Shown here piece by piece: positions 4,387 to 41,310 of a stretch of DNA of 64,000 bases. The first letter of the stretch is position 1; every line of letters starts with the position of its first letter. This stretch comes from Planctomycetota bacterium (GTDB lineage Bacteria > Planctomycetota > UBA1135 > UBA2386), in the NCBI GenBank assembly GCA_947501605.1, contig CANMWZ010000018.1, forward strand, positions 12,780-76,779, written 5' to 3'. A program made the translations under genes and the position numbers. Below the pieces are notes generated by a model that did not search any database, had not been told where the DNA came from, and saw only the letters and a list, made by a program, of their open reading frames with translations.

Positions 4387-4408
4387 GCAGTTTGCAGGCA
4401 GAGGAACC

Positions 4409-4756: not shown

Positions 4757-4764
4757 GGTGAACC

Positions 4765-5223: not shown

Positions 5224-5251
5224 CCCACTCCTTCGAGTCTGAGGTGATCCA

Positions 5252-5629: not shown

Positions 5630-5632
5630 TCC

Positions 5633-7162: not shown

Positions 7163-7168
7163 TCCGCC

Positions 7169-8200: not shown

Positions 8201-8207
8201 ATCCACC

Positions 8208-8813
8208 ATGACGACGACTCACTCGGCCATTGCGCTCGACGCGCCGATGCGCAGCGTGCGCCTGCAGTCACGCGCCGCCACGACCGATGCCGCATCCCAA
8301 GCGAAGGTCGAGTGGCTGGTCCAACTCGGCGACCGACAAGCGCGTCGCGATGCGGAAACCAAGGCACTGCAGGTGACCGTTCAGGCAATTCAGCGAACTC
8401 TGCAGGCGATGAATGCGACCGTTGCGAGTCGTCTCGACGAGATTGCCGCCTTGGTCGTCGACCTCGGGTTGGCCGTTGCCCGCGAGATTGTCGGCAACGC
8501 TCTCGACCGCGGTCAGGTCGATCCGACGCCGACCGTGATTCACTGTCTGCGCGACTGCGTGCACGGCACCAGCGGCGCCGATCTGTCGATCGCGCTCAAT
8601 CCCGACGACCTTGCCTCGGTGCTGGCCAAACTTGCCGAACGAGTGGATCTGCAGCGGGAAGTCGCCGCCGCCGAGATCGTGGCCGACCCCGCCCTCGCTC
8701 GTGGTGCGGTGCGCGCGGAGACCGGCACGGGTCGCTTGCGCTATGACCCACGCGAGACGTTTGAACGCATCGCCGCAGCCGTTCGTAGCAGTGCGCAGGG
8801 CGGCACGACGTGA
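8208..8813 (+). CDS. fliH: Flagellar assembly protein FliH
   Basis: 201 aa, between fliG and fliI. The stop overlaps the fliI GTG start (GTGA). Coiled-coil N-terminus and a FliH/YscL-like C-terminus (LSIALNPDDLASV...). Called mainly on position and size. Confidence 0.72.
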   Translation: MTTTHSAIALDAPMRSVRLQSRAATTDAASQAKVEWLVQLGDRQARRDAETKALQVTVQAIQRTLQAMNATVASRLDEIAALVVDLGLAVAREIVGNALDRGQVDPTPTVIHCLRDCVHGTSGADLSIALNPDDLASVLAKLAERVDLQREVAAAEIVADPALARGAVRAETGTGRLRYDPRETFERIAAAVRSSAQGGTT

Positions 8814-10135
8814 TTGGTCGTCCACCGTTGCCGGCGCACCTAGAAGCCGCTCTCGCTGCAGGTCGCGCGCAGAACCGCATGATCGCTGAGGGTCGCGTGA
8901 AGGCGATCTCTGGCATCGCCATTCGCGTCAGCGGACTGCGAGCTGCGATCGGCGATGTCTGCACCATTCACTCGCAGAACGGTCGCGAGACGCTGCCGGC
9001 GGAGGTCGTCGGCTTCGACGGGGGCGAGGCCGTCGTGCTCGCACTCGGCGACCAGCATGGCGTCGCGCCATGGGATCTCGTGCGCAACGACCATCGCTCG
9101 CTGCAAGTGCCCGTCGGACCGGCCTTGCTGGGTCGGGTCCTCGACGCGCTCGGTCGTCCCATCGATGGCGGTCCGCCGCTCGAAGCGCCGACCCGATCGA
9201 TCACGGCGACGGCGCCGACTCCACTCGAACGCGCCCCGATCCACGAGCCTCTGGTCACCGGCGTGGCGGCGATCGACGGCTTTGCGACCTGCGGCAAGGG
9301 GCAGCGTATCGGCATCTTCGCGGGTTCCGGCGTCGGCAAGTCGACGCTCATGGGCACCATCGCCAAGAGCGGCTCGGCGGCGGTCAACGTCATTGCGATG
9401 ATCGGTGAGCGCGGCCGCGAAGTCGGTGAGTTTCTCACCGAGTCGCTGGGGCGCGAGGGCATGGCCAAGTCGGTCGTCATCGCGTGCACCTCCGACCAGG
9501 CGCCGATGTTGCGGCTGAAGGCGCCAATGGTCGCAGTCACCATTGCAGAGGCGTTTCGCGAGCAGGGCCAAGACGTGCTGTTCTTGATGGACAGCGTCAC
9601 GCGCTTCGCGATGGCCGCTCGCGAAGTCGGCCTCGCCGCCGGCGAGCCGCCGACGTTGCGCGGCTACCCGCCGTCCTTGTTCGCCAAGCTGCCGCAGCTG
9701 GTCGAACGTCTCGGCAACGACGGGCGCGGTTCGATCACGGGCATGCTGACCGTGCTGGTCGACGGCGACGACATGAACGAACCGGTCGCCGATGCTCTGC
9801 GCGGCTACCTCGACGGTCACATCGTGCTGTCGCGCAAGCTGGCGGAACGCGGGCGCTTTCCGGCAATCGACGTGCTGGCGTCGATCAGCCGTTTGATGCC
9901 GAAGGTCACGACCAAGGAGCACCAGCAGCGGGTGCGCAAGGTGCGCGAGTGGATGGCGCACTACGAGGAGAACCGCGATCTCATCACCGTCGGTGCCTAC
10001 AAGAAGGGCGGCGACCAGTTGCTGGACCAGGCGATTGCCCGTTTGCCGGCAATCGAGGAACTGCTGTTCCATGGCGCCACCCCGCGCCCGCTGGCGGAGA
10101 CCCAGAAGCGACTGCAGCAGCTGGCCGGGAGCTGA
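8810..10135 (+). CDS. fliI: Flagellum-specific ATPase FliI
   Basis: 441 aa. Walker A GIFAGSGVGKSTLMG, Walker B VLFLMDSVTRFAMAAREV, and F1/T3SS-ATPase-like PPSLFAKLPQLVERLG...GSITGMLTVLV. Confidence 0.95.
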   Translation: MIGRPPLPAHLEAALAAGRAQNRMIAEGRVKAISGIAIRVSGLRAAIGDVCTIHSQNGRETLPAEVVGFDGGEAVVLALGDQHGVAPWDLVRNDHRSLQVPVGPALLGRVLDALGRPIDGGPPLEAPTRSITATAPTPLERAPIHEPLVTGVAAIDGFATCGKGQRIGIFAGSGVGKSTLMGTIAKSGSAAVNVIAMIGERGREVGEFLTESLGREGMAKSVVIACTSDQAPMLRLKAPMVAVTIAEAFREQGQDVLFLMDSVTRFAMAAREVGLAAGEPPTLRGYPPSLFAKLPQLVERLGNDGRGSITGMLTVLVDGDDMNEPVADALRGYLDGHIVLSRKLAERGRFPAIDVLASISRLMPKVTTKEHQQRVRKVREWMAHYEENRDLITVGAYKKGGDQLLDQAIARLPAIEELLFHGATPRPLAETQKRLQQLAGS

Positions 10136-10197
10136 GGCGAAGGGGCGACCGGTAGGCGCCCGTTCCACTTCGGTGGAGTTCGCCTCATCAAGAGCCC

Positions 10198-10665
10198 ATG
10201 CCATGGCCGATAGACGAGACCATGGGTCGGTTCCAGTTCCGTTTGGCAGGTCTGCTCCGTCTGCGCACGCAGATGGAGAAGACTGCGCGGCGCACTCTCG
10301 CAGCGGCGATGGGCAACGTCGCCAACGTCGAGCAGCGCATGGCGACGGCCACGATTGGTCTGGCCGAGTGCGAGCAACTGGGATGCGGCACTGACGCGCA
10401 TGCACCGCTGGCGCGCGCCCTGGCGCAGGGCCTCGCGCGGCATCGGTTGCGGCTCCAGAACGAGCTGCGCGCAGCGCATGCGCAACTCGAGCGCACCCGC
10501 GGGGACTGGATCGAACGACGGCGCGAGCAACGCACGCTCGATGTCCTGCGCGACAAGCAGCGCGAAGAATGGCAGATGGAACGGCAGCGCGCCGAACAGC
10601 ACGAACTCGAAGAACTGGCACGCGGCCGCAAGGTCCTCGCGCCCGCTGAGGAGACGCAAGAATGA
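10198..10665 (+). CDS. fliJ: Flagellar export chaperone FliJ (probable)
   Basis: 155 aa predicted coiled coil (FQFRLAGLLRLRTQMEKTARRTLAAAMGNV...), directly after fliI. The stop overlaps the next start (ATGA). The start could instead be the internal Met at 10222. Confidence 0.65.
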   Translation: MPWPIDETMGRFQFRLAGLLRLRTQMEKTARRTLAAAMGNVANVEQRMATATIGLAECEQLGCGTDAHAPLARALAQGLARHRLRLQNELRAAHAQLERTRGDWIERRREQRTLDVLRDKQREEWQMERQRAEQHELEELARGRKVLAPAEETQE

Positions 10666-11759
10666 AGGGGCTCATCGTCAACGTCTTGGTAGGTGTCGGT
10701 CTGTTTGCCGGAGCTCTGGTGGGGGGGCTGATGGCCACGGGTCGCTGGAACAACGCGGGTGTCGCCAACATCCCCGTGCTCAACGGCATGTTCCCGGCAC
10801 CACCTGAGGGCGAAGGCTCGACTGCGGATGGTCACGCCGGCGCGCCGAAGGGCGAGGTTGGCAACAACGGCGGCAACGATGCCCACGGTGCGCCGAGCGA
10901 CGCCAATGCGACGCCGCACGACGGGGCACCCGTCGATGGTGCGCACGCGCAGGACCCGCAGAAGCCGCAAGAGCCACCGCTCGCGCCGCTGAAGCGTGGG
11001 CGTTCCATCGTGCAGAAGGACGAGCCAAAGGGTGGTGGTCACGGCGAGGCGCCCGCGAGCGGGCACGGCGAGAAGCCAGCAGCGCACGGGGCCGAGAAGC
11101 CGAAGAACGAGCACGCTACCCCCGAGCATGGCTCGGCGACCGAGCCTGACGCGAGCCACGGCTCGCTGCCAGACAAGGACTTCGCGCACCTGTCGAACCA
11201 GCTGAAGCAAGAACCCGACATCCGCTATTCGCCAGGGGCCTACTTCCGCTTTGACGGGATGCCTGCTGGGGTGACGCCCGACCAACTCAACGACGCCTGG
11301 AAGAGAGTTCAGGAGGCCGTCGGCGAACTGGAACGCCGCACCAAGGCGCTGGAGCTGCGCGAGCAGGAGTTGCGCGAGTTCTCCGACGACATCGCACGTC
11401 GCCAGACCGAGGTCGGTAAGGAGCGCGCCGAGATCGAAGCGATGCAACGTCGCCTCGACGAACGTGTCGAGCAGTTCCAGGACCAGGTCAAACTGATCAA
11501 GAACGACGAGATCGCCAGCTTGCAGAAGAACGCGAAGAGCTACGAGATCTTCGAACCCAGCAAGGCGGCCGAGCTCATCAAAGACCAGTGGAAGACCGAC
11601 GCTGGCCAGATCGAGATGCTCAAGATGATGGAGTTCATGAGCAAGGAGACGGTGGACCAGATTCTGGCGGCAATGCCCAACGAGCTGGTGCTCGACGTGA
11701 TGGCGAAGCGGCGAAAGATCAGCAGGGAGACGGTGCCACCGGCTGCTCCGCGCAAGTGA
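10662..11759 (+). CDS. MotE/YlxF/FlbB-like flagellar protein: N-terminal TM, His/Gly/Pro-rich linker, coiled coil, MgtE_N-like C-terminus
   Basis: 365 aa. TM segment LIVNVLVGVGLFAGALVGGLMA, then a low-complexity HG/HA-rich stretch (DGHAGAPKGE...GGHGEAPASGHGEKPAAHGAEKPKNEH). A coiled coil follows. The C-terminal PSKAAELIKDQW...IEMLKMMEFMSKETVDQILAAMPNELVLDVMAKR resembles the MgtE_N-type repeat of MotE / B. subtilis YlxF. It occupies the ylxF position after fliJ. Confidence 0.6.
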   Translation: MKGLIVNVLVGVGLFAGALVGGLMATGRWNNAGVANIPVLNGMFPAPPEGEGSTADGHAGAPKGEVGNNGGNDAHGAPSDANATPHDGAPVDGAHAQDPQKPQEPPLAPLKRGRSIVQKDEPKGGGHGEAPASGHGEKPAAHGAEKPKNEHATPEHGSATEPDASHGSLPDKDFAHLSNQLKQEPDIRYSPGAYFRFDGMPAGVTPDQLNDAWKRVQEAVGELERRTKALELREQELREFSDDIARRQTEVGKERAEIEAMQRRLDERVEQFQDQVKLIKNDEIASLQKNAKSYEIFEPSKAAELIKDQWKTDAGQIEMLKMMEFMSKETVDQILAAMPNELVLDVMAKRRKISRETVPPAAPRK

Positions 11760-11833
11760 AGATCTTTTGAACACCGTGAGCGGATCGAGTCGATAGACGA
11801 ACCGAAGGATCGGCGGCGAGGGAGTGACGCAGA

Positions 11834-12355
11834 GTGGCTGACGACAAGAAGAAAGAAGCAGACGCCAAAGCCGAGGACGGCAAGAAGAAGAAGAAGGGCT
11901 TGCCGCCCGTCCTTTTGATCGCCGTCGGTGCTGCCTTGGGCGGTGTCGGCGTCGTGTTCGGAGTGCCGCCAAAGCAGGTGGAAGTCCACGTGCCCGAGGT
12001 GGTGCACACGTTCACGCCGATCCAGCATCCAGACCTCCTCGAGTTCCAATTCAACCCGCGCGCGCAAGCCGGCAAGGCCTACGCGAGCGTGTCGTTCTAC
12101 TTCGTCTACGTCGCCCGCGACGACCGCGAAGAAGCGGCGTTCGAGGCGATCAAGACCAACTGGGATCGCATTCGTTCGCGCGTGCTGGAACTGCTCAGCA
12201 ACACCAGCGTGAGCGATCTCAACGCCGAGAACGGCAAACGCATGCTGGCGAAGGCCTTGGTCGACGACCTCGACGCGACCATCTTCCCCGGCAAGGCAGA
12301 TGAGAAAGTGGCCAAGGTGAGCGAAGTGCTCTGGGCCAAGTGGATCCTTCAGTAG
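11834..12355 (+). CDS. fliL: Flagellar basal body-associated protein FliL
   Basis: 173 aa, GTG start. Lys-rich N-terminus, a single TM (PPVLLIAVGAALGGVGVVFGV) and a FliL-like C-terminal domain (...LSNTSVSDLNAENGKRMLAKALVDDLDA). Located immediately upstream of fliM. Confidence 0.8.
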   Translation: MADDKKKEADAKAEDGKKKKKGLPPVLLIAVGAALGGVGVVFGVPPKQVEVHVPEVVHTFTPIQHPDLLEFQFNPRAQAGKAYASVSFYFVYVARDDREEAAFEAIKTNWDRIRSRVLELLSNTSVSDLNAENGKRMLAKALVDDLDATIFPGKADEKVAKVSEVLWAKWILQ

Positions 12356-12374
12356 CAACCAACCGGACAACTGC

Positions 12375-13355
12375 GTGAACGAGATCCTCAGCAACGAAGA
12401 GATCGACACCCTGCTCGACATGTTTCGAGCCGGAGCGGGCGAGGACGAAGTCCCCGTTGCCGCGCCGAAGCTCGAAACGGTCGTCGACGACCGCATCAGC
12501 GAGGTCGATCTCCTGAAGCCCAACCGCCTCGCGCGCGAGCAGCTGCGCGGGATGGAGCGCTACTTCGAGAGCGCGGGCAAGCTGCTGTCGGCAACGATCT
12601 CGGACAAGCTCCGCATCGACACGCGCTGCGATTGCGTTGCGGTCGAACAGCAGCGATTCGGCACGTGGCTCGAACAGCTCCCCGGACCGGTCGCGATCTA
12701 CGTCTGCAAGATGGAACCGTTCCGGACGCCGGTCTTGCTCACCGCCAGCACCAGTCTGCTGTACGGCGCCGTCGACCGCATCCTCGGGGGTTCTGGTCGC
12801 GTGTCGAGGGTTCCGAAGGACTTCACGCAGGCCGAGTACACCGTTGCCGACGCGCTGATGGGGCCTTGCCTCGATCGCATCGTCGAGAGTCTCGAAGACG
12901 TCATCCCCTTGAAGTGGCAGATCGAGAATCGATTCTGCAACCCGTCGATGGCGCAGATCCTGCCGTCGCAGGATGTGGTGCTCTCGGTCTACTTCCAGGT
13001 TGCGGGCGAGTTCCTGATTGGCGACCTGCGACTGCTGGTGCCGTTCCAGTCGATCGAGCCCTACCTCGACAAGTTCGCCAAAGACAGCGTCACGCGCATG
13101 GAGCCAGGAACGATGCGCGAACAGGTTGCACGAACGGTCAAGAGCGTGCCGCTCGACCTAGCCGTCGAACTCGGCAACGCGCGCATCACGTTGCGTCAAC
13201 TGCTCGATCTTCAGCAAGGCGACGTGATCCCGCTCGATACCCGCTTTGGCAGCCCCGCGGTCGTGCCAGTGATGGGGCGCCCCAAGTTCCTCGGTCAGAT
13301 CGGCCGGATCGGCAACAGGTTGGGTGTGCAGGTTGCCGATGTCATCGGGGCGTAG
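12375..13355 (+). CDS. fliM: Flagellar motor switch protein FliM
   Basis: 326 aa, GTG start. The N-terminal LSNEEIDTLLD is the CheY-P-binding LSQxEIDALL-type motif. The C-terminal SpoA-like region is present (LRQLLDLQQGDVIPLD...PVMGRPKFLGQIGRIGNRLGVQV). Confidence 0.92.
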   Translation: MNEILSNEEIDTLLDMFRAGAGEDEVPVAAPKLETVVDDRISEVDLLKPNRLAREQLRGMERYFESAGKLLSATISDKLRIDTRCDCVAVEQQRFGTWLEQLPGPVAIYVCKMEPFRTPVLLTASTSLLYGAVDRILGGSGRVSRVPKDFTQAEYTVADALMGPCLDRIVESLEDVIPLKWQIENRFCNPSMAQILPSQDVVLSVYFQVAGEFLIGDLRLLVPFQSIEPYLDKFAKDSVTRMEPGTMREQVARTVKSVPLDLAVELGNARITLRQLLDLQQGDVIPLDTRFGSPAVVPVMGRPKFLGQIGRIGNRLGVQVADVIGA

Positions 13356-15259: not shown

Positions 15260-15952
15260 TTGCGCACCACTTCGCTGCTGCTCGCGGTTGCCTTCTCGAT
15301 CGCTGGTTGCCACACGGCAGAGGCGAACGTCGACGCCGCTCCCTACACGTTGGTCTATCTCAAGACCGGCCCGACCAAGGGCCTGAGCAAAGAGCGGCAG
15401 CAGGAGGTGTTTGCCGGGCACTTCGCGAACATGGAACGGCTCGCGCAGCAAGGCCACTTGGTGCTCGCGGGTCCGTTCGGCACGCGCAAGACCGACGCGT
15501 CCCTGCGCGGCATCTTCGTGCTCGCGACCGGCGACGAGGCGAAAGCGCGCGCGCTGGCCGAGACCGATCCCGGCGTGGTGGCGGGCGTGTTCGTGTTGGA
15601 GTACCACGCGCTCGCGACCGCGGCAGCTCTGCCGAAGTGGGTCGCTGCGGAGATGGCGCGCGACGCGGCGTTGAAGGCGACGGGGAAGACGCCAAAGCCT
15701 GGCGAGTTTGGGCGCGGATTTGTGCTCTTGATTGGCGAGGATGGAGCGAGCGTTCGCCGCGAGTTGACCGGGCAGAAGGGCGTGTTGCTGCTGGCGAGCT
15801 ATGACGAGAAGGGCGCCTTTGCGGTGCTCGATGCGGTCGATTGCGGTGCGGCAACGACGAAGTTCGGTGCAGTCTTGCCAAAGGTCGGCGCGCATCGGCT
15901 GGAAGACTGGTTTGCCAGTCGCGGGCTCGAGCAGTTGCCGCTCATGAAGTGA
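15260..15952 (+). CDS. YciI-like domain lipoprotein
   Basis: Track ORF is 15158..15952. An in-frame TTG at 15260 gives a classic lipoprotein signal, MRTTSLLLAVAFSIAGC (lipobox IAGC). It is followed by a YciI-like fold pattern (YTLVYLKTGP...FAGHFANMERLAQQGHLVLAGPF...DPGVVAGVFVLEYHAL). The start codon is uncertain. Confidence 0.7.
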   Translation: MRTTSLLLAVAFSIAGCHTAEANVDAAPYTLVYLKTGPTKGLSKERQQEVFAGHFANMERLAQQGHLVLAGPFGTRKTDASLRGIFVLATGDEAKARALAETDPGVVAGVFVLEYHALATAAALPKWVAAEMARDAALKATGKTPKPGEFGRGFVLLIGEDGASVRRELTGQKGVLLLASYDEKGAFAVLDAVDCGAATTKFGAVLPKVGAHRLEDWFASRGLEQLPLMK

Positions 15953-16070
15953 CCACGGCACCAAGCCGAGCCCGCAACGCGACTGCTCCCGTGTAGACAC
16001 GCACGTGGAGCGGCCAAGCCTTGGCAAAGACGGCGCATCTTCACGGTTCCTGCGGAGTCGCAGGCTAGGA

Positions 16071-16223
16071 GTGGTTTCTCAAAGCGCCAGCGCCTGCGGC
16101 CGGCACGTCGGTCGATGGCTGTGTCGCGAACTCCCAGCGGAATCCACGGATCCCGCCATCAGTCCGCTCCTTGTCCTCAACTGTCGTGGCTCGGTCGCGC
16201 GCGCAGGCCATTTGGGCAACCAC
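16071..16223 (+). repeat. Conserved ~155-nt 5' leader, copy A (upstream of paralog A1)
   Basis: Aligns colinearly with 17487-17640 at high identity by eye, including identical runs CGATGGCTGTGTCGCGAACTC and GCGGAATCCACGGATCCCGCCA. Indels change the reading frame between the copies, so it is not coding. It begins with GTGGTTTCTCAAAGCG. Confidence 0.8.
16079..16106 (+). promoter_or_regulatory. Candidate sigma-28-like promoter inside leader copy A
   Basis: TCAAAG (16079-16084) and GCCGGCAC (16099-16106) have the same spacing as the copy B site. The -10 is weaker (GCCG only). Confidence 0.25.
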
Positions 16224-16301
16224 TCCGTGGAAGGCGCCTCGTCGCCCTGCCATGCGGTGGTGCTGCTTCCTCTTCTCCACACAGACTTCGCGATTCCTCC
16301 A

Positions 16302-17411
16302 ATGCGTCATCTCACTATCCCCACGGGGCTCCTTCTCAGTCTTTCCGTTGCCAGCATGTCGGTCTCGGCTGCGGCCCAAGTCTTGGCCAGCGACAGCTTT
16401 TCCTATGCCGGGGCGCTGACGGCCAACGGTTGGGCGGCACACAGCGGTGCTGGCGCGAAGCTGATTCTCTCGAATGGCTCCATCGCGACGTTGAACCAGG
16501 GCCCGGGCTCGGGCGAAGACGTCAACTTGGCGTTCCCCGCGCTGACCGCGACCGACACGGTGTTCGCCTCGTTCACGTTGAATGTGCCGTCGGGCACCCC
16601 GGTCACGCCGCCCGCCGCCGGTCTCTACTTCGCGCACTTCAAGGACACGACGACACTGTTCCGCGCCCGCACCGGCGTCGTGGCGCCAACTGCTGGCGGC
16701 AACTTCCGTATCGCGATCCATGCCGACAACGCCAACCTCTCGCTCGGCACGTCGTGGCCGACGGAGCAGGTGTTCAATACCGACTACAAGGTCGTCATCA
16801 GCTGGAACGCGGCGACCGGTCAGTCGCAGCTGTGGATCGATCCGACGGCTGTGACGGATCCGTCGATCTCCCACACGGGCACGTTGGTCGGCACGATCAT
16901 CTCGCAGTTCGCGCTGCGTCAGGCGAGTGACTACACCGGCTTCCTCACCATCGACGACGTGCTCGTCGGCCGCACGTTCGCCGATGTCTGTGGAACTCCG
17001 GGTAGCTACACCACCTTCGGCGCCGGCTGCGCCAGCTCGGTCGGTGTCGCAACCAACACGGCGAGCCCGGTCCCCGCGATCGGTGTCACCACGGTGGTCA
17101 CGCTCTCGCCGGTGCCGAACCCCGGCGTCGGGCTGCTCCTGATCGGCTCGAGCAACACGTTCTCGAACTCGTTCGGCCCGCTGCCGCTCGACCTCACGTT
17201 CTTCGGTGCGCCTGGCTGCAGTGGTCGCGTCAGCGATGACGTCGCGCAGTTCTTCGGCATTGGTGCGGGCAGCATCAGCTTCAACGTCGGCATCCCGAAC
17301 GACCCGTTCTTCGTCGGCCTCCAGCTCTACACCCAGGGCCTCGTGTTCGAGAACGTGAACGCGCTCGGCATCGTGTTCTCGGATGCCGCGACGATGGTGA
17401 TCGGCGGTTGA
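16302..17411 (+). CDS. Secreted protein A1: signal peptide, beta-rich N-domain of unknown function and the shared C-terminal domain
   Basis: The track ORF 16005..17411 was trimmed to ATG 16302 (MRHLTIPTGLLLSLSVASMSVSAAAQ, a Sec signal). It is a paralog of 17721..18818 over its full length. The tail ...FGAGCASSVGV...GLLLIGSSN...GPLPLDLTFFGAPGCSGRVS...VGIPNDPFFVGLQLYTQGLVFENVNALGIVFSDAATMVIGG carries the shared C-terminal domain. Confidence 0.85.
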   Translation: MRHLTIPTGLLLSLSVASMSVSAAAQVLASDSFSYAGALTANGWAAHSGAGAKLILSNGSIATLNQGPGSGEDVNLAFPALTATDTVFASFTLNVPSGTPVTPPAAGLYFAHFKDTTTLFRARTGVVAPTAGGNFRIAIHADNANLSLGTSWPTEQVFNTDYKVVISWNAATGQSQLWIDPTAVTDPSISHTGTLVGTIISQFALRQASDYTGFLTIDDVLVGRTFADVCGTPGSYTTFGAGCASSVGVATNTASPVPAIGVTTVVTLSPVPNPGVGLLLIGSSNTFSNSFGPLPLDLTFFGAPGCSGRVSDDVAQFFGIGAGSISFNVGIPNDPFFVGLQLYTQGLVFENVNALGIVFSDAATMVIGG

Positions 17412-17486
17412 GCCCAAAGCGGAGAGTTGGCAACGCCTGCGTCCAACGGACGTAGGCGCACAATCGCCATACTGCGGGCCGTAGAC

Positions 17487-17640
17487 GTGGTTTCTCAAAG
17501 CGTCTGCGGCTGTGGCCGATCCCGACGGCCGATGGCTGTGTCGCGAACTCGCCGCGGAATCCACGGATCCCGCCACGAGTCCGCTCGTGGTCCTCGACTG
17601 TCGTGGCTCGGCCGCGCCCGCAGGTCCTTTGGGAAACCGC
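17487..17640 (+). repeat. Conserved ~155-nt 5' leader, copy B (upstream of paralog A2)
   Basis: See copy A. It contains a perfect local hairpin CCACGAG-TCCG-CTCGTGG that is not conserved in copy A. Confidence 0.8.
17495..17522 (+). promoter_or_regulatory. Candidate sigma-28 (FliA)-like promoter inside leader copy B
   Basis: CAAAGCGT-N11-GCCGATCC (equivalently CAAA-N15-GCCGAT), compared with the textbook TAAAGTTT-N11-GCCGATAA. It would give a ~190-nt 5' UTR before ATG 17721. Confidence 0.35.
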
Positions 17641-17720
17641 TTCTGGCGACTGCGGCCGCGCTAGAACGCCCAGTCAGCGGCCCGATCCCCTATCCTGCGT
17701 CGCTACCCAGACGATCCAGA

Positions 17721-18818
17721 ATGCGCCACTTCGCCACCACATTCCTCAGTGCGGCTCTCGCCCTTTCGACCGCCGCTTCGGCTCAGCAACTGCTGCGCGA
17801 CGACTTCGCCTACGCCGGCCCGCTGACCAGCAACGGCTGGTTTGCACACAGCTCGGGCGGCCAGCGTACCATCGTGTCGTTCGGCGACTACGCGATCTTG
17901 AGCCAGGGCACGGGCGCCGGCGAGGACCTCAGCCGCGGGTTCCCGCAGCTTGCGGCGACGGACTCGGTCTACGCCGCGTTTCGACTCAACGTGCCGTCAG
18001 GCAACGCGGTCAATCCGGCATCCGCCGGGCTCTACTTCATCCACTTCAAGGACGGTACCACGGGCTTCCGTGCGCGCACGGGTGTGCTCGCGCCGGCGTC
18101 AGGTGGTGCGTTTCGGTTGGCGATTCATGCCGACAGTGCCAATCTCGGCCTCGGCGCTGCGTGGCCATCGGATCTTGCGTTCGACACCGACTACCTGGTC
18201 GTCATCGGCTTCGATGGCGCGCTCAATCGAGCGACGCTTTGGGTCGATCCGATCACTGCAGCCTCGCCTTCGATCGGACACACCGGGACGCTGCCGACCC
18301 CGTTCGTGACCGCCATCGCGCTGCGGCAGAGCAGTGAATACACCGGCTCGCTCCGCATCGACAACCTGATCGTCGGGCGCACCTTTGTGGATGTCGCCGG
18401 CGCCGGCCGTAGCTACGTGACGTTCGGCGCGGGCTGCTCCGGCTCGGTCGGGGTTCCGTCCAACACCGCGAGCCCGCTGCCTCGCCTTGGTCGCACGACG
18501 ACGATCACCATCGGCAACGTGACGGTGCCCGCCATCGCGCTGCTGCTGGTCGGCACCAGCAACACGTTCTCGCCGTCGTTCGGTCCGCTGCCGATCGACC
18601 TCACGGCGTTTGGTGCGCCGGGCTGCTCAGGCCGCGTCAGTGATGACGTAACGCAGTTCTTCGCTCTTGGCTTTGCCGGCGTGCCCTTTGACGTGGCGAT
18701 TCCCAATGACACCTACTTCATGGGGCTGCAGCTCTACACGCAGGCACTGGTGTTCGAGAACGTGAACCCGTTGGGGCTCGTGCTCTCGGACGCTGCGACG
18801 TTCGTCATCGGCGGCTGA
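17721..18818 (+). CDS. Secreted protein A2 (paralog of A1) with the shared C-terminal domain
   Basis: The track ORF 17427..18818 was trimmed to ATG 17721 (MRHFATTFLSAALALSTAASAQQ). It is colinear with A1. The tail is ...FGAGCSGSVGV...ALLLVGTSN...GPLPIDLTAFGAPGCSGRVS...IPNDTYFMGLQLYTQALVFENVNPLGLVLSDAATFVIGG. Confidence 0.85.
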   Translation: MRHFATTFLSAALALSTAASAQQLLRDDFAYAGPLTSNGWFAHSSGGQRTIVSFGDYAILSQGTGAGEDLSRGFPQLAATDSVYAAFRLNVPSGNAVNPASAGLYFIHFKDGTTGFRARTGVLAPASGGAFRLAIHADSANLGLGAAWPSDLAFDTDYLVVIGFDGALNRATLWVDPITAASPSIGHTGTLPTPFVTAIALRQSSEYTGSLRIDNLIVGRTFVDVAGAGRSYVTFGAGCSGSVGVPSNTASPLPRLGRTTTITIGNVTVPAIALLLVGTSNTFSPSFGPLPIDLTAFGAPGCSGRVSDDVTQFFALGFAGVPFDVAIPNDTYFMGLQLYTQALVFENVNPLGLVLSDAATFVIGG

Positions 18819-18953: not shown

Positions 18954-19949
18954 TCAGCCCTTGGTCGAGAACTTCCCCAGCATCTCCTCGGCCTGCTGGG
19001 CGGCGTGCGTACCGGCGTACTTCTTGGTGCTCTTGAACTTCTCTAGTTCTTCGACCAGCTTGCGTCGTTGCGCGACCTTGCCGGCGTCGAACTTGCCGAC
19101 CACCTTCTCGAGCGCCTTCGAGGCCGCGATCTCGTCCTTGACGTGCGCGTCCTTGGCAAAGCGTTCGAGCTCTGACTTGGCCGCGTCGGCGGGCGGCAGG
19201 CCGGCCCAGTCCTTTTGCAGGCGCTCCAGCTGATTCAAGGCGGTGTAGAAGTCCGGACCCTTGCCCAGCGTCTGCACGCGAGCCGTCGCGCGCTCCATCC
19301 GCTTCTGCAGCTCCGCTTGCTGGCTTTCGTAGACTGTCCGCAGTTCCGCGTCGACGGTCGGTTGCCCCAGCATCTTGGTGAGGTAGTCACCGAGCTTCTT
19401 GAACTCCTTCTTCTGCCAGAGGCTGCGAATCGCGTCGAAACGCGAATCCACCGGCATCTTGGGCGAGAGCGAGACGTTTGCGAGCTGCTCCTCGATGAAT
19501 GCCTCCGTCGGCATGCGATCGTCGGGCACAGTCAGGATCGTGCCATCGGGCGCAATGCAGTAGACGCTGGGGAAGAAACCGATGCGGTACTGCTCGTTGA
19601 CGCCCTTGGCGCAGACGAACGGGTACTTGGCACCGAGTTTGGTGATGAAGGTCTCTTCGATCAGGCTTTCGTTCTCATCGGACACGCCGATGAGTAGCAA
19701 CCCCCGCTCCGCGTACTTCTCGTGAAGTTCGTTGAGGTGCGGGACGGCTGCCTTACACGGGCCTCACCAGGTCTGGGCGAAGTCGAGGATGACCAGCTTG
19801 CCTTCGAACTCGTCGAACTTGGCGGGGCCGTCGTTCCAGACCTTGGCGATCTCGAAGGCCGGAGCCGGCGAGCCCTTCGCGAGCTGGGCTGGCGCCGCGG
19901 CGGCAAACAGCAGCGTTGCGGCGGTGGCGAAATGGATGTTCTTGTTCAT
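18954..19949 (-). CDS. Secreted thioredoxin-fold (TlpA/redoxin-like) protein with an in-frame TGA at the first active-site Cys (W-U-G-P-C): probable selenoprotein
   Basis: Two track ORFs in the same frame (18954..19700 and the last 61 codons of 19764..21191) are separated only by TGA at 19764-19766. The joined product is MNKNIHFATAATLLFAAAAPAQ (signal)...GKLVILDFAQTW-[TGA]-GPCKAAVPHLNELHEKYAERGLLLIGVSDENE..., so the canonical WCGPC motif has TGA in place of the first Cys. The frame stays open for 270 codons after the TGA. An imperfect extended hairpin can be drawn 13-67 nt downstream of the TGA (19697-19751). Confidence 0.75.
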
Positions 19950-23699: not shown

Positions 23700-25445
23700 T
23701 CAGATCCCGATCGTCCAACGAACGCCGTTGGAGACGCGGTAGCCAAACGCATTGGCCGTGAGGTCGTCGCTGATCGCTTGCGACATCAGTTGCACGCCGA
23801 CGAAGGCGGGCGTGTTGGGGATCGCGATCAGGTAGGTCGTGGTTGGCGCGCCGAGCGTCAGGTTGAAGTACGAGAGCAGCTCCGGCAGCGCGATGTAGGC
23901 CGTGCAGCCAGTGAGGCCGAAGCCATCGAGCGGGAAGCCGCCGGGGAGTTCGTTGCTGATCAACAAGATGCTGAAGACACCGTTGGGCAGGCTCGCGATG
24001 TTGTTGGTATCCAGCGTGTAGTTGCTGCCGATGGTCGGAACCGAGCCGGTTGGGACCGACAGGGTCAGCGGGAACACCTGGGTGCCCGGTACGGTGAGAC
24101 CATTGACGGTTGACAGGTCGGCGGCGCCGGAGTTCTGCACGTTGCCGCCGCGCGAGTATCCCGCCAGGAAGAAGCCGGTGTTCAGCGACACGTTCTGCCA
24201 GCGGATCGTGAACTGACCCGTCGGGCTGAGCGCGATCTGGACGTTGATGGGGGTCGCCGCGCCGTACTCCGGCACGTTGCGCCAGCTGATAACGAATTCG
24301 CCAGTGCCGGCGTCGAGCGCGTGCTCAACCGTGCCGCCAGAGGTCGGATCGAGGTCTTCCCACCAAGCTGCAATGCGAGCCGGTCCGCTGACGAGCACAG
24401 CAGGGTCTCCCGTGCAGCACCCGTCACCCGGATCCGTACCGCCGATGGTCAAGAAGCCGTTCGACGACACATAGATCGAGGTCTCGTTGGCGCCGTTGAA
24501 CGGGAACGCGAACGGCAAGGGGACCAAGTGCGAACTGTCATCGAGTGCCAGCAGTGGGGTTCCAGCGCCAGCGAACCACACCGGCGAAAGGCCGGGCAGC
24601 GCGATGTAGTCGTTGCCCGACGGCAAGAAGCTGAGGTTGAGGCCGCTGAGGTCGGGGGCGTTGTTGGCGCTGAACTGCTCATAGAGCGTGGGCGAAGCCG
24701 CAGCCGGGCAGCCAGCGCCGACTACGGTCGAGGTGGCGACGTTCGACGTGCACGTGACGTCGGTGACGACGTAGCCAGGGTTGGTCGGCGTGAACAGCCA
24801 CTTCGAGTTGGCGTAGGGCAGGAGCTGGCCGGGAGCACGCGTGATCACTTGGGCAAATGCGTTGGTCGCGATGTTCAGCGGGCGCGTGGCGAAGTTGACG
24901 GTCGGTGTCGCCACACCAGGACTCGCGCCGATGATCGCGGTGTTGGCCTGGAACGTCGACGTCGTGCCCAACGTGCCGTAGGCCACCGTGAAGGTGTTGT
25001 TGGCGAAGAGCGAGATCTGCATCGTGCCTGGCAACGTCGTGCCGTAGGTGTAGACGCGGATCCACGAAACGCGCGCGACGCCCGGCGTCGAGTTGTCGAA
25101 GTAGACCTGGCCGCTGCCCGCAATCGTGGGGTTGAAGTCGTTCCAGTAGGGGCAGATGCGCGCGCCGCCGGTCGCCATCTCAGCGAGCGTTGGCGAGTAG
25201 TCGCCGCCGTTCAGCGTCGACACGTTGGTGGAGCCGAGCACGAGGTAGCCGTTGGCGCACACCGAGATGCTGCTGTGGACAACACCGTTGTAGGTGAACG
25301 AGAACCCGAGGGGCAGCGGTGCCGTGACCTGGTCGTCACCGAGTGCGAGGCTGGGCCCGAAGTTGGTGTCGAAGCACGGACTCTGGGCCAACAGAGATGC
25401 AGCAAAGCTGGCTGCGAGAGCGGACGAGAGAAGGCTGCGGAGCAT
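23700..25445 (-). CDS. Secreted two-module NIDO-like protein with the shared C-terminal domain, paralog 1 of 5
   Basis: The track ORF 23700..25535 was trimmed to ATG 25445 (AGGAG upstream; MLRSLLSSALAASFAASLLAQSPCFD). Module 1: LGDDQVTAPLPLGFSFTYNGVVHSSISVCANGYLVLG...ARICPYWNDFNP. Module 2: DDSSHLVPLPFAFPFNGANETSIYVSSNGFLTIGGTDPGDGCC...RIAAWWEDLDP. Tail: ...ILLISNELPGGFPLDGFGLTGCTAYIALPE...IPNTPAFVGVQLMSQAISDDLTANAFGYRVSNGVRWTIGI. Confidence 0.85.
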   Translation of the reverse strand: MLRSLLSSALAASFAASLLAQSPCFDTNFGPSLALGDDQVTAPLPLGFSFTYNGVVHSSISVCANGYLVLGSTNVSTLNGGDYSPTLAEMATGGARICPYWNDFNPTIAGSGQVYFDNSTPGVARVSWIRVYTYGTTLPGTMQISLFANNTFTVAYGTLGTTSTFQANTAIIGASPGVATPTVNFATRPLNIATNAFAQVITRAPGQLLPYANSKWLFTPTNPGYVVTDVTCTSNVATSTVVGAGCPAAASPTLYEQFSANNAPDLSGLNLSFLPSGNDYIALPGLSPVWFAGAGTPLLALDDSSHLVPLPFAFPFNGANETSIYVSSNGFLTIGGTDPGDGCCTGDPAVLVSGPARIAAWWEDLDPTSGGTVEHALDAGTGEFVISWRNVPEYGAATPINVQIALSPTGQFTIRWQNVSLNTGFFLAGYSRGGNVQNSGAADLSTVNGLTVPGTQVFPLTLSVPTGSVPTIGSNYTLDTNNIASLPNGVFSILLISNELPGGFPLDGFGLTGCTAYIALPELLSYFNLTLGAPTTTYLIAIPNTPAFVGVQLMSQAISDDLTANAFGYRVSNGVRWTIGI

Positions 25446-25580
25446 GGGACTCCTGAGAGGGGTGTATGGCCAGTGGGGGACAATGGGAGCTGGCCGGGGT
25501 GGATTGCGACGAACGCTGTCCCCTTGGGGTTCCATCTTGCCATACCCGCGATCCCGTGCCTGTGGGGTTGCAGCACAAAT

Positions 25581-25621
25581 GACGACGCCCGGCCGACCGC
25601 GAGGGTCGTCCGGGCGTCGTC
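25581..25621 (-). terminator. Strong hairpin 19 nt downstream of paralog 2
   Basis: The 12-nt arms GACGACGCCCGG and CCGGGCGTCGTC are exact reverse complements, with further inner pairing CGACC/GGTCG. On the minus strand it is followed by ATTTGTG. Confidence 0.6.
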
Positions 25622-25639
25622 GTTCGGGCGCGAGCTAGA

Positions 25640-27400
25640 TCACAGACCGAGGATCCAGCGGACGCCGTTCGACACGCGGTAGCCGAAGGCATTTGCGGTC
25701 AGGTCATCGCTGATCGCCTGCGACATGAGCGTCACGCCGGCGAAGGCGGGGACGTTTGGGATCGGGATCGAGAACGTCGTGGTTGGCGCGCCAAGCGTCA
25801 GGTTGAAGTACGACAGCAGCTCTGGCAGCGCGATGTAGGCCGTGCAGCCAGTGAGGCCGAAGCCATCGAGCGGGAAGCCGCCGGGGAACTCGGTGCTGAT
25901 CAACAGGATGCAGAAGATGCCGTTCGGCAGGCTCTGGATGTTGGTCGCATCGAGCGTCATGGTCTGGCCGAGCTGCGGCAGGCCCGTCGGGGTCAGTTCG
26001 AGCGGAACCGAGATCAGGCCGCTGACCAGCTGGCCGCTGACCGCCGAAATGTCGGTGACACCCGGATCCCCCGTGTTGCTGCCGGCGGAGTAGCCGGAGA
26101 TCCACGTGTGACCTTGGTCGCTCACCGACTGCCAACGGATGGTGAACAGGCCGCTCGGGTTCAGCGCGATCTGGAAGGTCTCTAGCGGGCCTGCAAAGAA
26201 CTCGGGGACCTGATTCCAGGTGATGACGTACTCTCCAGTCGCGACGTCGAAATCGGCGAAGACGCCGCCGCCGGGGCCGGCGCCCGGAGGATAGATGTCC
26301 GCCCAGAAGCCCGAAATGCGCGGTGGCCCGGAGAGCATCGTCAAGACGTCGCCTGAGCAGCAGCCGCTGAACGGATCCGTAGCACCCAGCGTGAGGAAGC
26401 CGTTCGACGAGACGTAGATCTGGGTCTCGACCCCGCCGTTGTATGGGAACGGGAACGGCAACGTGATCTGGATCGTCTCGTCGTCGTTCATCAGGAGGTT
26501 GTTGGTGAACCCGGCGTACCACGTCGGGGCCACGTTCGGCAGGGCTAGGTAGTCGATAGCCCCCGAGGGCACGAAGCTCAGGTTGAGGCCGCTCAGGTCC
26601 GGCTGGTTGCCGAAGGTGTCGAAGATCTCGTAGAGCGACGGGCCGCTGCGACCAGGGCAGCCGCTACCGACGACCTCCGTCGAAGCGGGGCCGGGGAACG
26701 AGTTCGGCGTGCAGGTGAGGTCCGAGACTACGTAGCCTGGGGACGTCGGCGACCACAGCATCTTGAAGCCGAAGGGGATCGGCAGGCCGGGCGTTGTGCC
26801 GACGAAATCGCTGAACGAGTTCGAGGCGGTGACGACGGGCCGGGTCGCCAGCGAGATGGGATTCGAGACCGCGCCGAAGCCCGGGCTCGCGCCGATCAGG
26901 TAGTCCGTGCTGAACGCACCGATCTCGAGGGTCGGGCCGTAGGCGATGGTGACGCTGTTGCTGGCGTCGAGTGTGAGCTGGAAGCTGTTCGGCGTCGTGG
27001 TTGCGAATGCGAACACGCCAGCCCAAGAGATTCGGGCGACACCGGGCGTCGAGTTGTCGAAGTAGACGTGGCCGCTGCCGGTGGCACCTGGATTGAGGTC
27101 GGTCCAAAAGGCGCAGATGCGTGGATCACCGGCCAGCAGCTCCGCTTCGGTCGGGGTGTAATCGCCGCCGAACTGAGGGTTGACGCTGCCGAGCCAGATG
27201 TACCCATTCGAGCACACCTGAATGTCCGTGTAGGTGACGCCGTTGTAGGTGAAGTTGAAGCCGAGCGGCAACGGTGCCGACGTGTCGTCGTCGAAGAGAT
27301 TCAGGTCGGTGCCGATCGTGAGATCGAAGCACGGGCCCTGCGCAGGGAGCGTCGCGAAGAGAGTCGTCGCGATCGCGGCAGTCAGAATGCTGCGAAGCAT
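25640..27400 (-). CDS. Secreted two-module NIDO-like protein with the shared C-terminal domain, paralog 2 of 5
   Basis: Trimmed to ATG 27400 (MLRSILTAAIATTLFATLPAQGPCFD). Same architecture as paralog 1: DDDTSAPLPLGFNFTYNGVTYTDIQVCSNGYIWLG; ITLPFPFPYNGGVETQIYVSSNGFLTLGATDPFSGCC; tail ...RVSNGVRWILGL. Confidence 0.85.
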   Translation of the reverse strand: MLRSILTAAIATTLFATLPAQGPCFDLTIGTDLNLFDDDTSAPLPLGFNFTYNGVTYTDIQVCSNGYIWLGSVNPQFGGDYTPTEAELLAGDPRICAFWTDLNPGATGSGHVYFDNSTPGVARISWAGVFAFATTTPNSFQLTLDASNSVTIAYGPTLEIGAFSTDYLIGASPGFGAVSNPISLATRPVVTASNSFSDFVGTTPGLPIPFGFKMLWSPTSPGYVVSDLTCTPNSFPGPASTEVVGSGCPGRSGPSLYEIFDTFGNQPDLSGLNLSFVPSGAIDYLALPNVAPTWYAGFTNNLLMNDDETIQITLPFPFPYNGGVETQIYVSSNGFLTLGATDPFSGCCSGDVLTMLSGPPRISGFWADIYPPGAGPGGGVFADFDVATGEYVITWNQVPEFFAGPLETFQIALNPSGLFTIRWQSVSDQGHTWISGYSAGSNTGDPGVTDISAVSGQLVSGLISVPLELTPTGLPQLGQTMTLDATNIQSLPNGIFCILLISTEFPGGFPLDGFGLTGCTAYIALPELLSYFNLTLGAPTTTFSIPIPNVPAFAGVTLMSQAISDDLTANAFGYRVSNGVRWILGL

Positions 27401-27526
27401 GGGTTCCTTGAAAGATGGGGGGCGTTCACCTCTGCGACGTCGGGAGCCGTGCGCAGGTGCAGTCGATCCTAGAGATAATGGCACACTTAGCGATGAGGCC
27501 ACCGGCGGCAGTGTGTCGCCAAAATG

Positions 27527-27568
27527 CAAAACGCCCGGGGCACCGGCGAGCGGGCCACGGGCGTTTTG
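27527..27568 (-). terminator. Rho-independent-type terminator downstream of paralog 3
   Basis: The arms CAAAACGCCCG (27527-27537) and CGGGCGTTTTG (27558-27568) are exact reverse complements. On the minus strand the stem is followed by CATTTTGG (U-run). Confidence 0.65.
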
Positions 27569-27616
27569 CGGACGGGCGCGCGAGCCGCGTCCGTCACCGT
27601 CCTCAGAGCGCTTGGC

Positions 27617-29383
27617 TCAGAGGCCGAAGTTCCAGCGGAGACCGTTCGACACGCGGTAGCCGAAGGCGTTCGCGGTGAGGTCGTCGCTGACGGCCTGCGA
27701 CATCAGGCTGACGCCGTAGAAGGCGTTGTCGTTCGGGATGCTGATCGGCCACGACGTGGTCGCTGCGCCCAGCGTCAAGTTGAAGAACGACGCGATCTCT
27801 GGCAGCGCGACGTAGGCCGTGCAACCTGTGAGGCCGAAGCCGTCGAGCGGGAAGCCGCCCGGGACTTCGGTGCTGATCAGCAGGATGCAGAACACGCCGT
27901 TCGGCAGGGTCTGGACGCCGGTCGCATTGACCGTGAACGTGCCGCCGACTTGCGGGCGCGAGTTCAGGGCCGCCGCGATCGACAGCGGCGTGACCGTCGC
28001 CGGGATGTTGTTCGAGTAGTAGCCCAACGGCTGCGTCAGCACCAAGTAGTCGAGGCCGGTGTTGAACATCACGACTTCGAGGCCAGTCATGTCGATCGGC
28101 GACGCGTTGTTCGCGAACGTCTGGTACATCGTCGTGGCGTTGACGCCGGCGACGCCCGAGATGTCCGTGACACCCGGATCCGCAGCGCCGCCACCGACCG
28201 AGAAGCCGGTGAGCGCCACGCGCGTGGCGCTGACGATGCCGACGTTCAGGAAGCGCATCGTGACGGTGCCCGTCGGCGACAGCGCGATCTGGAAGTTGTT
28301 CGCCGGCTGCGGGGTGGCGCCGAACTCACCAGCGGAGACCCAGTTGATCACGTACTCGCCCGTGATCGCATCGACGTAGGCGTTGACTTCGCCGTTGCCG
28401 GTCGCCGACAGGTTGAGGTCCTGCCAGAAGGCCGCGAGGCGCGTCGGGCCCGTAAGCAGCGTGGCGGGGCTACCGGCGCAGCAGCCAGAGCCTGGGTTGG
28501 TCGTGCCGAGGGTCAGGAAGCCGTTCGACGAGACGACGATGTTGTTGAACGTGCCCGTCGGTGCCGGGAACGCGAACGGCAGGGTGAGTGCATGCGTGGT
28601 GTCGTCACCGGCGTTGAGGGCCGGGCTCACAAGGGCTGGGCAACCGACGCCGACGACTGCCGAGCTGGCCGGGGGCGGCAGCTGGTTCGGCGTGCAGGTG
28701 ACATCCGAGATCACGAAGCCGGGGTTGGTCGGGGTCCACAGCATCTTGAAGTTGCCGTAGGGGATCGGGACGCCGTTCACTGCCGGAATCGCTTCCGAGA
28801 ACGTGTTCGACGTCGAGATGATCGGGCGCGTGGCGAACGAGACCGGGTTGGCCACCGAGGCAGCACCGGGGCTGGCGCCGATGAGGACGGTCGTGTTCAG
28901 CGTGCCGGGAACGGCCGCGGCGCCGTAGGTGACCGTGACGCTGTTGCTGGCATCGAAGCTGACCTGGAAGTTGATGCCAGTCGTCGTGCCGAAGGCGAAC
29001 ACACCGGCCCAAGTGACCGTGGCGACGCCCGGCGTCGAGTTGTCGAACCAGACTTTGCCGCTGCCGACCGCGCCCGGGTTGAAGTCGCTCCAGAGCGGGC
29101 AGATGCGCGGCGCACCGGCGAGCAGTTCGGCCTCGGTCGGCGAGAAGTCACCGCCGGCGATGCCGGTCGTGCCGAGCCAGATGTAGCCGTTCGAGCACAC
29201 GCTTACCTGCGTGTAGGCGACACCGTTGTAGGTGAACGTGAAGCCGAGGTTCTGGGCCGCCGACGTGGAGTCGTCGATCAGCGCGAGATCGGTGCCGAGA
29301 GGGAGGCTGAAGCACGGGGCCTGGGCGCCGAGTGAGGCGGCGAGGGCCGTTGCAACGGCGGTCGTGAACAAACTACGAATCAT
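27617..29383 (-). CDS. Secreted two-module NIDO-like protein with the shared C-terminal domain, paralog 3 of 5
   Basis: Trimmed to ATG 29383 (MIRSLFTTAVATALAASLGAQAPCFS). It has IDDSTSAAQNLGFTFTYNGVAYTQVSVCSNGYIWLG; LTLPFAFPAPTGTFNNIVVSSNGFLTLGTTNPGSGCC; tail ...RVSNGLRWNFGL. The middle region is the most divergent of the five. Confidence 0.85.
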   Translation of the reverse strand: MIRSLFTTAVATALAASLGAQAPCFSLPLGTDLALIDDSTSAAQNLGFTFTYNGVAYTQVSVCSNGYIWLGTTGIAGGDFSPTEAELLAGAPRICPLWSDFNPGAVGSGKVWFDNSTPGVATVTWAGVFAFGTTTGINFQVSFDASNSVTVTYGAAAVPGTLNTTVLIGASPGAASVANPVSFATRPIISTSNTFSEAIPAVNGVPIPYGNFKMLWTPTNPGFVISDVTCTPNQLPPPASSAVVGVGCPALVSPALNAGDDTTHALTLPFAFPAPTGTFNNIVVSSNGFLTLGTTNPGSGCCAGSPATLLTGPTRLAAFWQDLNLSATGNGEVNAYVDAITGEYVINWVSAGEFGATPQPANNFQIALSPTGTVTMRFLNVGIVSATRVALTGFSVGGGAADPGVTDISGVAGVNATTMYQTFANNASPIDMTGLEVVMFNTGLDYLVLTQPLGYYSNNIPATVTPLSIAAALNSRPQVGGTFTVNATGVQTLPNGVFCILLISTEVPGGFPLDGFGLTGCTAYVALPEIASFFNLTLGAATTSWPISIPNDNAFYGVSLMSQAVSDDLTANAFGYRVSNGLRWNFGL

Positions 29384-29527
29384 GGTTTCCTCGATGTACA
29401 GGGGGCTGCATTGGCCGGAAACGGTGCATAGGGCTCCGGTTCTGGGGGCTTTGCTTGGATGAAGCCTACGCGCGAGAGGTTCCCTCACAATGGCCCGATG
29501 TAACTGCGGAGTCTCCCCGAAATGCGG

Positions 29528-29564
29528 AACGCCGGTAGTGCTGGCGACCAGCACTACCGGCGTT
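29528..29564 (-). terminator. Perfect 17-bp hairpin downstream of paralog 4
   Basis: AACGCCGGTAGTGCTGG-CGA-CCAGCACTACCGGCGTT. The arms are exact reverse complements. It lies 40 nt after the paralog 4 stop and upstream of the real paralog 3 start. Confidence 0.65.
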
Positions 29565-29603
29565 CAGGACGCAGGGCGCAGCAGGCGCGCCCGATCTGGC
29601 CGA

Positions 29604-31358: not shown

Positions 31359-31578
31359 GGGTTCCTCGATGTACGGGGGGTAGGCACGCGAGGCGCGCAC
31401 TCCGCCATGAGCCGGAGTGCGGGACTGCGAGCGCCGGAGGATACCAGCGGATCGCTGTCTCGCTAGTGGGGCCTCCCCATCCCCAGCCGAGGCAGAGGTT
31501 GCCCGCGAGGGACGCGGACTTGCGGCGCTACGGACCTGCTGCGAACTTCGTAGGGCTCAGATGCGCCGTAGCGAACCG

Positions 31579-41297: not shown

Positions 41298-41310
41298 GAG
41301 GCGCGACAGC

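Follow-up and report, generated by a model that had tools for sequence, protein, structure and literature searches.

The 64,000-nucleotide stretch of Planctomycetota contig CANMWZ010000018.1 that was analysed here (positions 12,780 to 76,779 of the forward strand, assembly GCA_947501605.1; called the window below) carries on its minus strand a 331-codon reading frame interrupted by one in-frame TGA. Judged by comparison with its homologues, this frame appears to be a true selenoprotein gene. It would be of a known kind, coding for a TlpA-like redoxin of the UxxC type with selenocysteine (Sec, U) at the first position of its CxxC motif, and it is systematically mis-annotated in public records. 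The enzyme type is ordinary, and it is the build and the placement of the expected recoding signal in the RNA that are unusual. The subfamily to which the gene belongs lacks a canonical bacterial selenocysteine insertion sequence (SECIS) and shows strong constraint on a hairpin that lies 70 nt downstream of the UGA, with a structured 57-nt segment between the two. We give a probability of roughly 40% to the reading that these elements form a split or 'bridged' SECIS, in which the distal CGUGU hairpin is brought to the ribosome by the 57-nt stem-loop.

An in-frame TGA conserved in all informative homologues

The minus-strand frame was found to run from the ATG at 19949 to the stop codon at 18954-18956, with a single internal stop, the TGA at 19766-19764 (minus strand), which is codon 62 and stands in the context ...LVILDFAQTW-TGA-GPCKAAVPHLNELHEKY. 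The original prediction, made from the letters of the window, had described this frame as continuous apart from one TGA and as split by callers of open reading frames (ORFs), and both statements held: mechanical ORF calling broke the gene into a 248-aa ORF (18954..19700) and an N-terminal piece that the TGA terminates, and public gene calls are nearly all fragments of ~240 aa from after the TGA. When the entire window was scanned for TGA codons with coding-like sequence free of stops on either side, the site at 19766-19764 was recovered together with two ordinary gene junctions. TGA serves as the stop codon in 28 of the 31 window ORFs, the selenoprotein gene among them, indicating that UGA has not been globally reassigned and that its recoding would be site-specific.

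In a protein search, more than 110 homologues were recovered; almost all were 237-248 aa long and aligned with no more than the C-terminal 72% of the query. These fragments came mostly from Planctomycetota metagenome-assembled genomes (MAGs), were named 'hypothetical protein', and had their start codon downstream of the TGA; an exhaustive profile-free search gave 1156 relatives. When the homologous loci were read as DNA, an in-frame TGA was present at the same codon in 65 of 65 informative loci from Planctomycetota MAGs and metagenomes. Among 36 GTDB species genomes, all of them Planctomycetota MAGs, it was found in 35 of the 35 informative loci in the context W-TGA-GPC, locus L028 being truncated. 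All 23 metagenome loci from a more distant subfamily had it too, in the context W/G/T/N-TGA-GPC/PPC/VPC/KYC, as did 7 of 7 further distant members, which are typically annotated as an ORF of 59-68 aa and another of ~250 aa. At least 15 full-length homologues with 25-34% identity carried WCGPC, YCGPC or WCPPC, with Cys in the TGA column, and the Cys codon was TGC in the three Cys forms that were read as DNA (L067-L069). A few relatives have lost the redox residue.

A conserved TGA with Cys-bearing homologues in the same column is the standard signature of a predicted Sec/Cys pair. The proposal that the TGA replaces the first Cys of WCGPC in a probable selenoprotein thus gained support both from the 65 informative loci and from the distant homologues that fill this column with Cys. 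TGC or TGT in close orthologues had been named beforehand as a sign against recoding; the close orthologues were found to carry TGA.

A ResA/TlpA-type redoxin domain across the TGA codon

With Cys substituted at the TGA, the Pfam families AhpC-TSA (1.3e-13; 51.4 bits against a cut-off of 26), Redoxin and Thioredoxin_8 matched residues 25-138, spanning residue 62. The best NCBIfam match was the ResA subfamily over residues 21-157 (76.6 bits against a cut-off of 170), and no model in the NCBIfam search reached its cut-off. Solved ResA structures aligned over residues 22-155, placing W-x-G-P-C on the T-W-C-K-P-C of ResA, and P127, invariant in 37 sequences, was aligned with the fold proline of ResA in the conserved cis-proline loop. 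The protein was found to have three features of TlpA/ResA-like proteins, namely a redoxin fold above threshold, W-U-G-P-C at the position of the CxxC motif that opens helix 1, and the conserved proline. The matches and alignments that cross residue 62 also bear out the earlier view that the sequences on both sides of the TGA belong to one redoxin fold.

The 269 residues that follow Sec were modelled with AlphaFold2 (predicted local distance difference test score, pLDDT, 91), which gave a ResA-like redoxin part and a C-terminal domain of eight helices. In Foldseek comparisons against the PDB, the N-terminal part matched ResA and DsbE, and the helical domain had no significant match; its hits, TPR-like (LapB, BamD) or 14-3-3-like, were weak (E > 0.2). 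The helical domain is conserved throughout the family, Cys forms included. The N-terminus, read from the sequence by eye, probably resembles a cleavable signal peptide, and the PAQ(L/V)xKG junction is kept among the homologues.

The gene very probably encodes one 331-residue protein, made up of a signal peptide, a ResA/TlpA-type redoxin with Sec in W-U-G-P-C, and a helical domain of ~165 aa. Its most likely function is that of a periplasmic thiol-disulfide reductase. After export to the periplasm the protein would act like ResA or TlpA, with the selenolate as the nucleophile towards disulfides or sulfenates of the substrate; resolution would fall to Cys65, and the helical domain may recruit a partner or a substrate.

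RNA-level selection downstream of the UGA codon

The excess of synonymous-site identity over the codon-usage expectation peaked in two stretches downstream of the UGA, codons +1 to +9 and codons +16 to +30. In 41 relatives, the region from +1 to +91 folded with a mean z of -2.25 against dinucleotide shuffles, compared to -0.02 in the distant Sec subfamily and ~0 to +1.6 in the three Cys forms. The Cys forms, which encode IIGVSDE, IIGVTNE or IVGVTDE at the position of the distal hairpin (hairpin 2, below), paired at just 4-5 of its 7 positions. In the window itself, the +1 to +91 region gave z = -2.72, and the 96-nt context gave z = -1.77, only a moderately better fold than its shuffles. A covariance model (R1) mostly scored the shared coding sequence and added little. 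These comparisons of sequences indicate that RNA-level selection acts on the mRNA from the UGA over the next ~90 nt.

One full-length homologue with 51% identity (P0009, gene at L070:481-597) has TCA (Ser) in place of the TGA and GGG in place of the TGG (Trp) codon, and both stem-loops described below are still intact in its gene. Either Sec was lost very recently in this Ser variant, or the single metagenome contig that carries it was misassembled. As a control for RNA decay it was uninformative, since TCA is one step from TGA and the RNA is intact.

Smaller peaks of synonymous conservation were seen outside the two-hairpin region, at ~19550-19570 and 19800-19815 (minus strand; counted from the UGA, codons +62 to +67 and codons -16 to -11). 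They cover GFFPSVYCI and the surroundings of EFEGKL, and could reflect additional RNA pairing or codon-usage effects.

A conserved distal hairpin and a variable stem-loop

Consensus folding with RNAalifold and the counts of paired positions were based on alignment A3, in which the window and 35 relatives are aligned without gaps. The best-supported element of the consensus was hairpin 2, which lies directly 3' of a longer stem-loop (stem-loop 1, SL1) and reads UCAUCGG-CGUGU-CCGAUGA at 19675-19693 with 7 bp, or has 8 bp at 19674-19694; its folding energy was -10.6 kcal/mol. Its positions were paired in 100% of cells in the 36 sequences, and 3 of the 7 pairs showed double changes (15 cells), several of which couple a change of I to V, L or M with a change of D to G, R or S on the opposite strand. 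Hairpin 2 was present in the minimum free energy (MFE) fold of 41 of 41 relatives, with the loop CGUGU in 39 and CGUGA in 2. Loci L060-L064 (30-38% protein identity) and L036 (Isosphaeraceae, 26% identical) keep hairpin 2 as well, and have before it a long stem-loop of different sequence and slightly shifted register. The bacterial SECIS model (PMC13188914) asks for an apical loop of 3-9 nt, an upper stem of 4-16 bp and an MFE of -7.5 kcal/mol or lower. Hairpin 2 agrees with it in its 5-nt loop, its stem of 7-8 bp, its energy and its loop sequence, which has G and then U at positions 2-3 like the model.

The stem-loop that the original prediction had put forward as the SECIS (19697-19751) corresponds to SL1. 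It exists, being reproduced by RNAfold at -27.2 kcal/mol, and is partly conserved: in the 36 sequences its outer helix was paired in 91% of cells and its apical helix in 80%, and 7 pairs across the two helices had double changes. Its energy and its 4-nt loop are those of a canonical SECIS, but the loop sequence ACGA and the distance of 38-40 nt between UGA and loop are not, the canonical spacing being 16-37 nt. Moreover, the apex is variable among relatives (ACGA, AUGC, CAC and loops of 8 nt), and the strongest conservation and covariation were found in hairpin 2, which had escaped the first reading. The coordinates of both elements and of the protein features are given in Table 1.

Table 1. 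Features of the selenoprotein gene in the window (positions of the 64,000-nucleotide stretch).
Feature	Coordinates	Strand	Description
Complete candidate selenoprotein gene	18954..19949	minus	331 codons including Sec62; own stop TGA 18954-18956; homologues span both halves
Probable N-terminal signal peptide	19887..19949	minus	MNKNIHFATAATLLFAAAAPA before QLAKG; basic N-region, hydrophobic core, A-P-A motif
ResA/TlpA-type redoxin (thioredoxin-fold) domain	19479..19877	minus	Residues ~25-157; Pfam, NCBIfam, PDB ResA, AlphaFold2
Predicted active site U-G-P-C	19755..19766	minus	TGA (19766-19764), GGC, CCG, TGT (19757-19755)
SL1	19696-19752	minus	57 nt, 21 pairs, GU bulge, ACGA loop; base 11 nt after UGA
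Hairpin 2	19674-19694	minus	CUCAUCGG-CGUGU-CCGAUGAG; 7-8 bp stem, loop 19682-19686, starts 69-70 nt after UGA
C-terminal all-helical domain, ~165 aa	18957..19448	minus	Residues ~168-331; eight helices, AlphaFold2 pLDDT ~95

Proximal and distal hairpins within one protein family

The sister Sec subfamily (23 metagenome loci of the QVGHL type, L037-L059, for example L037:229-345; alignment A5) was found to have a different hairpin, CAGGU-GGGUC-ACCUG, which starts 15 nt after the UGA and is 98% paired. At the position of hairpin 2 its sequences were paired at 52%, and no distal hairpin was present. In the window's subfamily the proximal hairpin position was paired at 49%, compared to 100% at hairpin 2. 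A simplified scan for the canonical SECIS was run with the constraints of PMC13188914 (loop of 3-9 nt, stem of 4 bp or longer, G within the first two loop positions, spacing of 16-37 nt); it allows no bulges, and bSECISearch itself could differ. All 23 sequences of the sister subfamily qualified, compared to 2 of 41 in the window's subfamily, and no hairpin without bulges qualified in the window sequence. Two further loci also have proximal hairpins: GGUGC-CGUGCC-GCACC in L065, with a spacing of 17 nt and a loop that shares the CGUG motif of hairpin 2, and GUGGGGG-CGAU-CCCCCAC in L066. Within a single protein family there would thus be two SECIS solutions, a proximal one and, as proposed, a distal one.

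Two other candidate structures were rejected. A mini-hairpin of 4 bp at canonical spacing, GCGG-CCGUC-CCGC, pairs a column that varies between G, A and U (column 24) with an invariant C (C32), and this variation fits the pairing of column 24 with U74 in SL1. An outer helix that encloses both hairpins and the UGA appeared in some MFE folds and was not conserved.

Recoding mechanism and alternative explanations

The proposed mechanism begins with SelB, carrying Sec-tRNA, which would be recruited by RNA structure downstream of the UGA. Hairpin 2, with its loop CGUGU, is the candidate SelB-binding element, because it has every property of a SECIS except the spacing and because its G-U loop is invariant, where the apex of SL1 varies. 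SL1, variable in sequence, would fold out the intervening 57 nt as a spacer, so that hairpin 2 would come to lie beside the mRNA entrance of the ribosome while the A site holds the UGA. Measured across the junction, with SL1 folded out, the distance from the UGA to hairpin 2 would be ~13 nt, which is close to the 11-nt spacing found to be required in work on E. coli fdhF.

Several findings weigh against this reading and the selenoprotein assignment beneath it. Counted along the mRNA, hairpin 2 lies beyond the strict spacing known for E. coli fdhF. Its loop is 77 nt from the UGA, also outside the 16-37 nt of the bacterial model (PMC13188914). The base helix of SL1, the putative spacer, was found in the MFE fold of 24 of 41 relatives and varied in register. 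Rfam yielded noise only, at the gathering thresholds as well as at permissive ones, and the Cys-form control for RNA structure comprises just three sequences. A search of the window and the homologous loci for hairpins with NGUGN loops downstream of an in-frame TGA turned up no credible second selenoprotein gene of the same genomes that could show which loop their SelB recognises. Finally, none of selA, selB, selD and tRNA-Sec was found within the 64-kb window or the fetched flanking DNA: tRNA scans of the window and 36 loci detected no tRNA-Sec, Pfam scans of 30 window ORFs detected no sel genes, and tblastn with E. coli SelD and SelB (approximate query sequences) found no matches in the window or the fetched loci. 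Planctomycetes with complete selA/B/C/D sets are documented, including Isosphaera pallida (PMC4807772, table S8), which is of the same family as locus L036.

Other explanations of the same data were weighed against the split SECIS. The protein may contain Sec while SL1 itself is the SECIS, with SelB binding its apex and hairpin 2 having an accessory role in pausing, mRNA stability or regulation. Beginning 11 nt downstream of the UGA, SL1 is the first stable fold in the path of the ribosome, it has some compensatory changes and is retained with different sequence in L060 and L063, and the spacing of its loop is only just beyond the canonical range. We nevertheless regard this alternative as rather unlikely, since the apical helix of SL1 is paired in just 80% of cells, the base helix occurs in 24 MFE folds compared to 41 of 41 for hairpin 2, and the invariant SelB-like GU loop sits on hairpin 2.

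The remaining alternatives dispense with Sec. Transfer RNAs for Cys that resemble tRNA-Sec have been described in some bacteria, and such a tRNA(Cys) could insert Cys at the UGA; near-cognate read-through stimulated by the RNA structure could insert Trp. The data show recoding and a conserved RNA element, with which either route would agree. Yet residue 62 is the nucleophilic Cys of the CxxC motif, the classic site of Sec/Cys exchange, at which Trp would inactivate the enzyme; the sister subfamily bears a canonical SECIS hairpin; and UxxC TlpA-like selenoproteins are already an established class (PMC13188914). Insertion of an amino acid other than Sec is accordingly judged very improbable. Still less credence is given to a broken gene or a pair of genes. 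Translation would then end at the TGA, the frame being a pseudogene or the product of a sequencing error, and the downstream ORF of 248 aa would be expressed by itself. Gene callers do annotate this split in nearly all public records, but 65 independent assemblies conserve the TGA together with the protein sequence on either side of it, a split at this point would sever the thioredoxin fold within its active site, and the downstream start positions vary among the homologues. The two-hairpin element on which the split SECIS is built is non-canonical and is well supported by covariation and by natural controls, and the mechanism proposed for it is plausible.

Genomic surroundings

The gene neighbourhood gave no clue to function, and no partner in cytochrome c maturation or copper-site assembly was indicated. 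Adjacency to metH was limited to the four closest relatives; at the other loci the common neighbours were a GT9 glycosyltransferase and an acyl-CoA dehydrogenase-like gene. The pair formed by metH and the selenoprotein gene is flanked in the window by two sets of paralogues: four tandem copies of ~650 aa (23700-31556, minus strand), 46-55% identical and with no Pfam match, and two tandem copies of ~465-490 aa (15948-18818, plus strand), ~60% identical, which have a C-terminal region of ~120 aa in common with the ~650-aa set. Both sets are probably secreted proteins.

Further along the window, two more proteins of redoxin type, an AhpC/TSA peroxiredoxin (58849-59463, plus strand) and a Thioredoxin_7/DsbH-like protein (60536-61558, plus strand), are encoded ~40 kb away in uninterrupted frames. 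A flagellar cluster at 4325-13355 (plus strand), with a rod protein, FliF, FliG, a FliI-type ATPase, FliL and FliM/N, indicates a motile planctomycete. A frame of 529 codons at 39819-41408 (minus strand) matched only the C-terminal half of Oxidored_FMN (Old Yellow Enzyme; profile positions 154-340). The N-terminal half was not found within this frame, which could be due to a fusion, a frameshift or a divergent N-terminus.

Significance and comparison with known systems

On the selenoprotein reading, hundreds of Planctomycetota 'hypothetical proteins' in the databases would be truncated and should be joined across the Sec codon. Prediction of bacterial selenoproteins depends on a hairpin 16-37 nt after the UGA, and the distal two-hairpin layout could serve as a model in searches for SECIS elements that escape present tools. 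In BSepDB, 12.6% of the bacterial selenoprotein entries are without a canonical SECIS, and their features are called uncharacterised (PMC13326102). If the bridged SECIS is real, it would provide a defined architecture for part of these ~12% of genes, and one protein family would have swapped between proximal and distal SECIS. The proximal and distal subfamilies form a natural comparison in which the spacing rule of SelB-dependent recoding becomes directly testable.

UxxC selenoproteins of the TlpA-like or thiol-disulfide isomerase-like type (cd02966, PF00578, PF08534) have been predicted since the Sargasso Sea and Global Ocean Sampling surveys and are listed in PMC13188914. The window's family is like them in its redoxin fold, in having Sec for the first Cys of CxxC, in being predicted from a Sec/Cys pair and in the usual mis-annotation as fragments. 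It differs in its added helical C-terminal domain of ~165 aa, and its subfamily differs in being without a canonical SECIS. Two selenoprotein candidates described as 'thiol-disulfide isomerase-like thioredoxin' were reported from planctomycete P1, one of the planctomycetes with a complete selA/B/C/D set, and bSECISearch found no SECIS for them (PMC4807772, table S9); they are alike by description, in phylum, type of annotation, annotation of each as two genes, and lack of a SECIS. In sequence and in fold the protein is matched best by Bacillus ResA and Bradyrhizobium TlpA, with W-C-x-P-C and the conserved proline aligned; these two have Cys instead of Sec and no C-terminal helical domain. The NCBIfam family NF041382 (VPGUxxT selenoprotein type 1) was weakly matched by residues 168-325 over the C-terminal 157 of its 349 positions (E = 2e-6), so that the helical domain seems to be common to two families of thioredoxin-like selenoproteins. 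With 27.2 bits against a cut-off of 350 for NF041382, 22.6 against 300 for NF041054 (WAxxUGC), and the motif WUGPC, the protein is not a member of either. Hairpin 2 is like the canonical bacterial SECIS of the E. coli fdhF type (PMC13188914) in its stem, its 5-nt G-U loop and its location within the coding sequence, and differs from it in that the loop lies 77 nt from the UGA with a 57-nt stem-loop in the interval.

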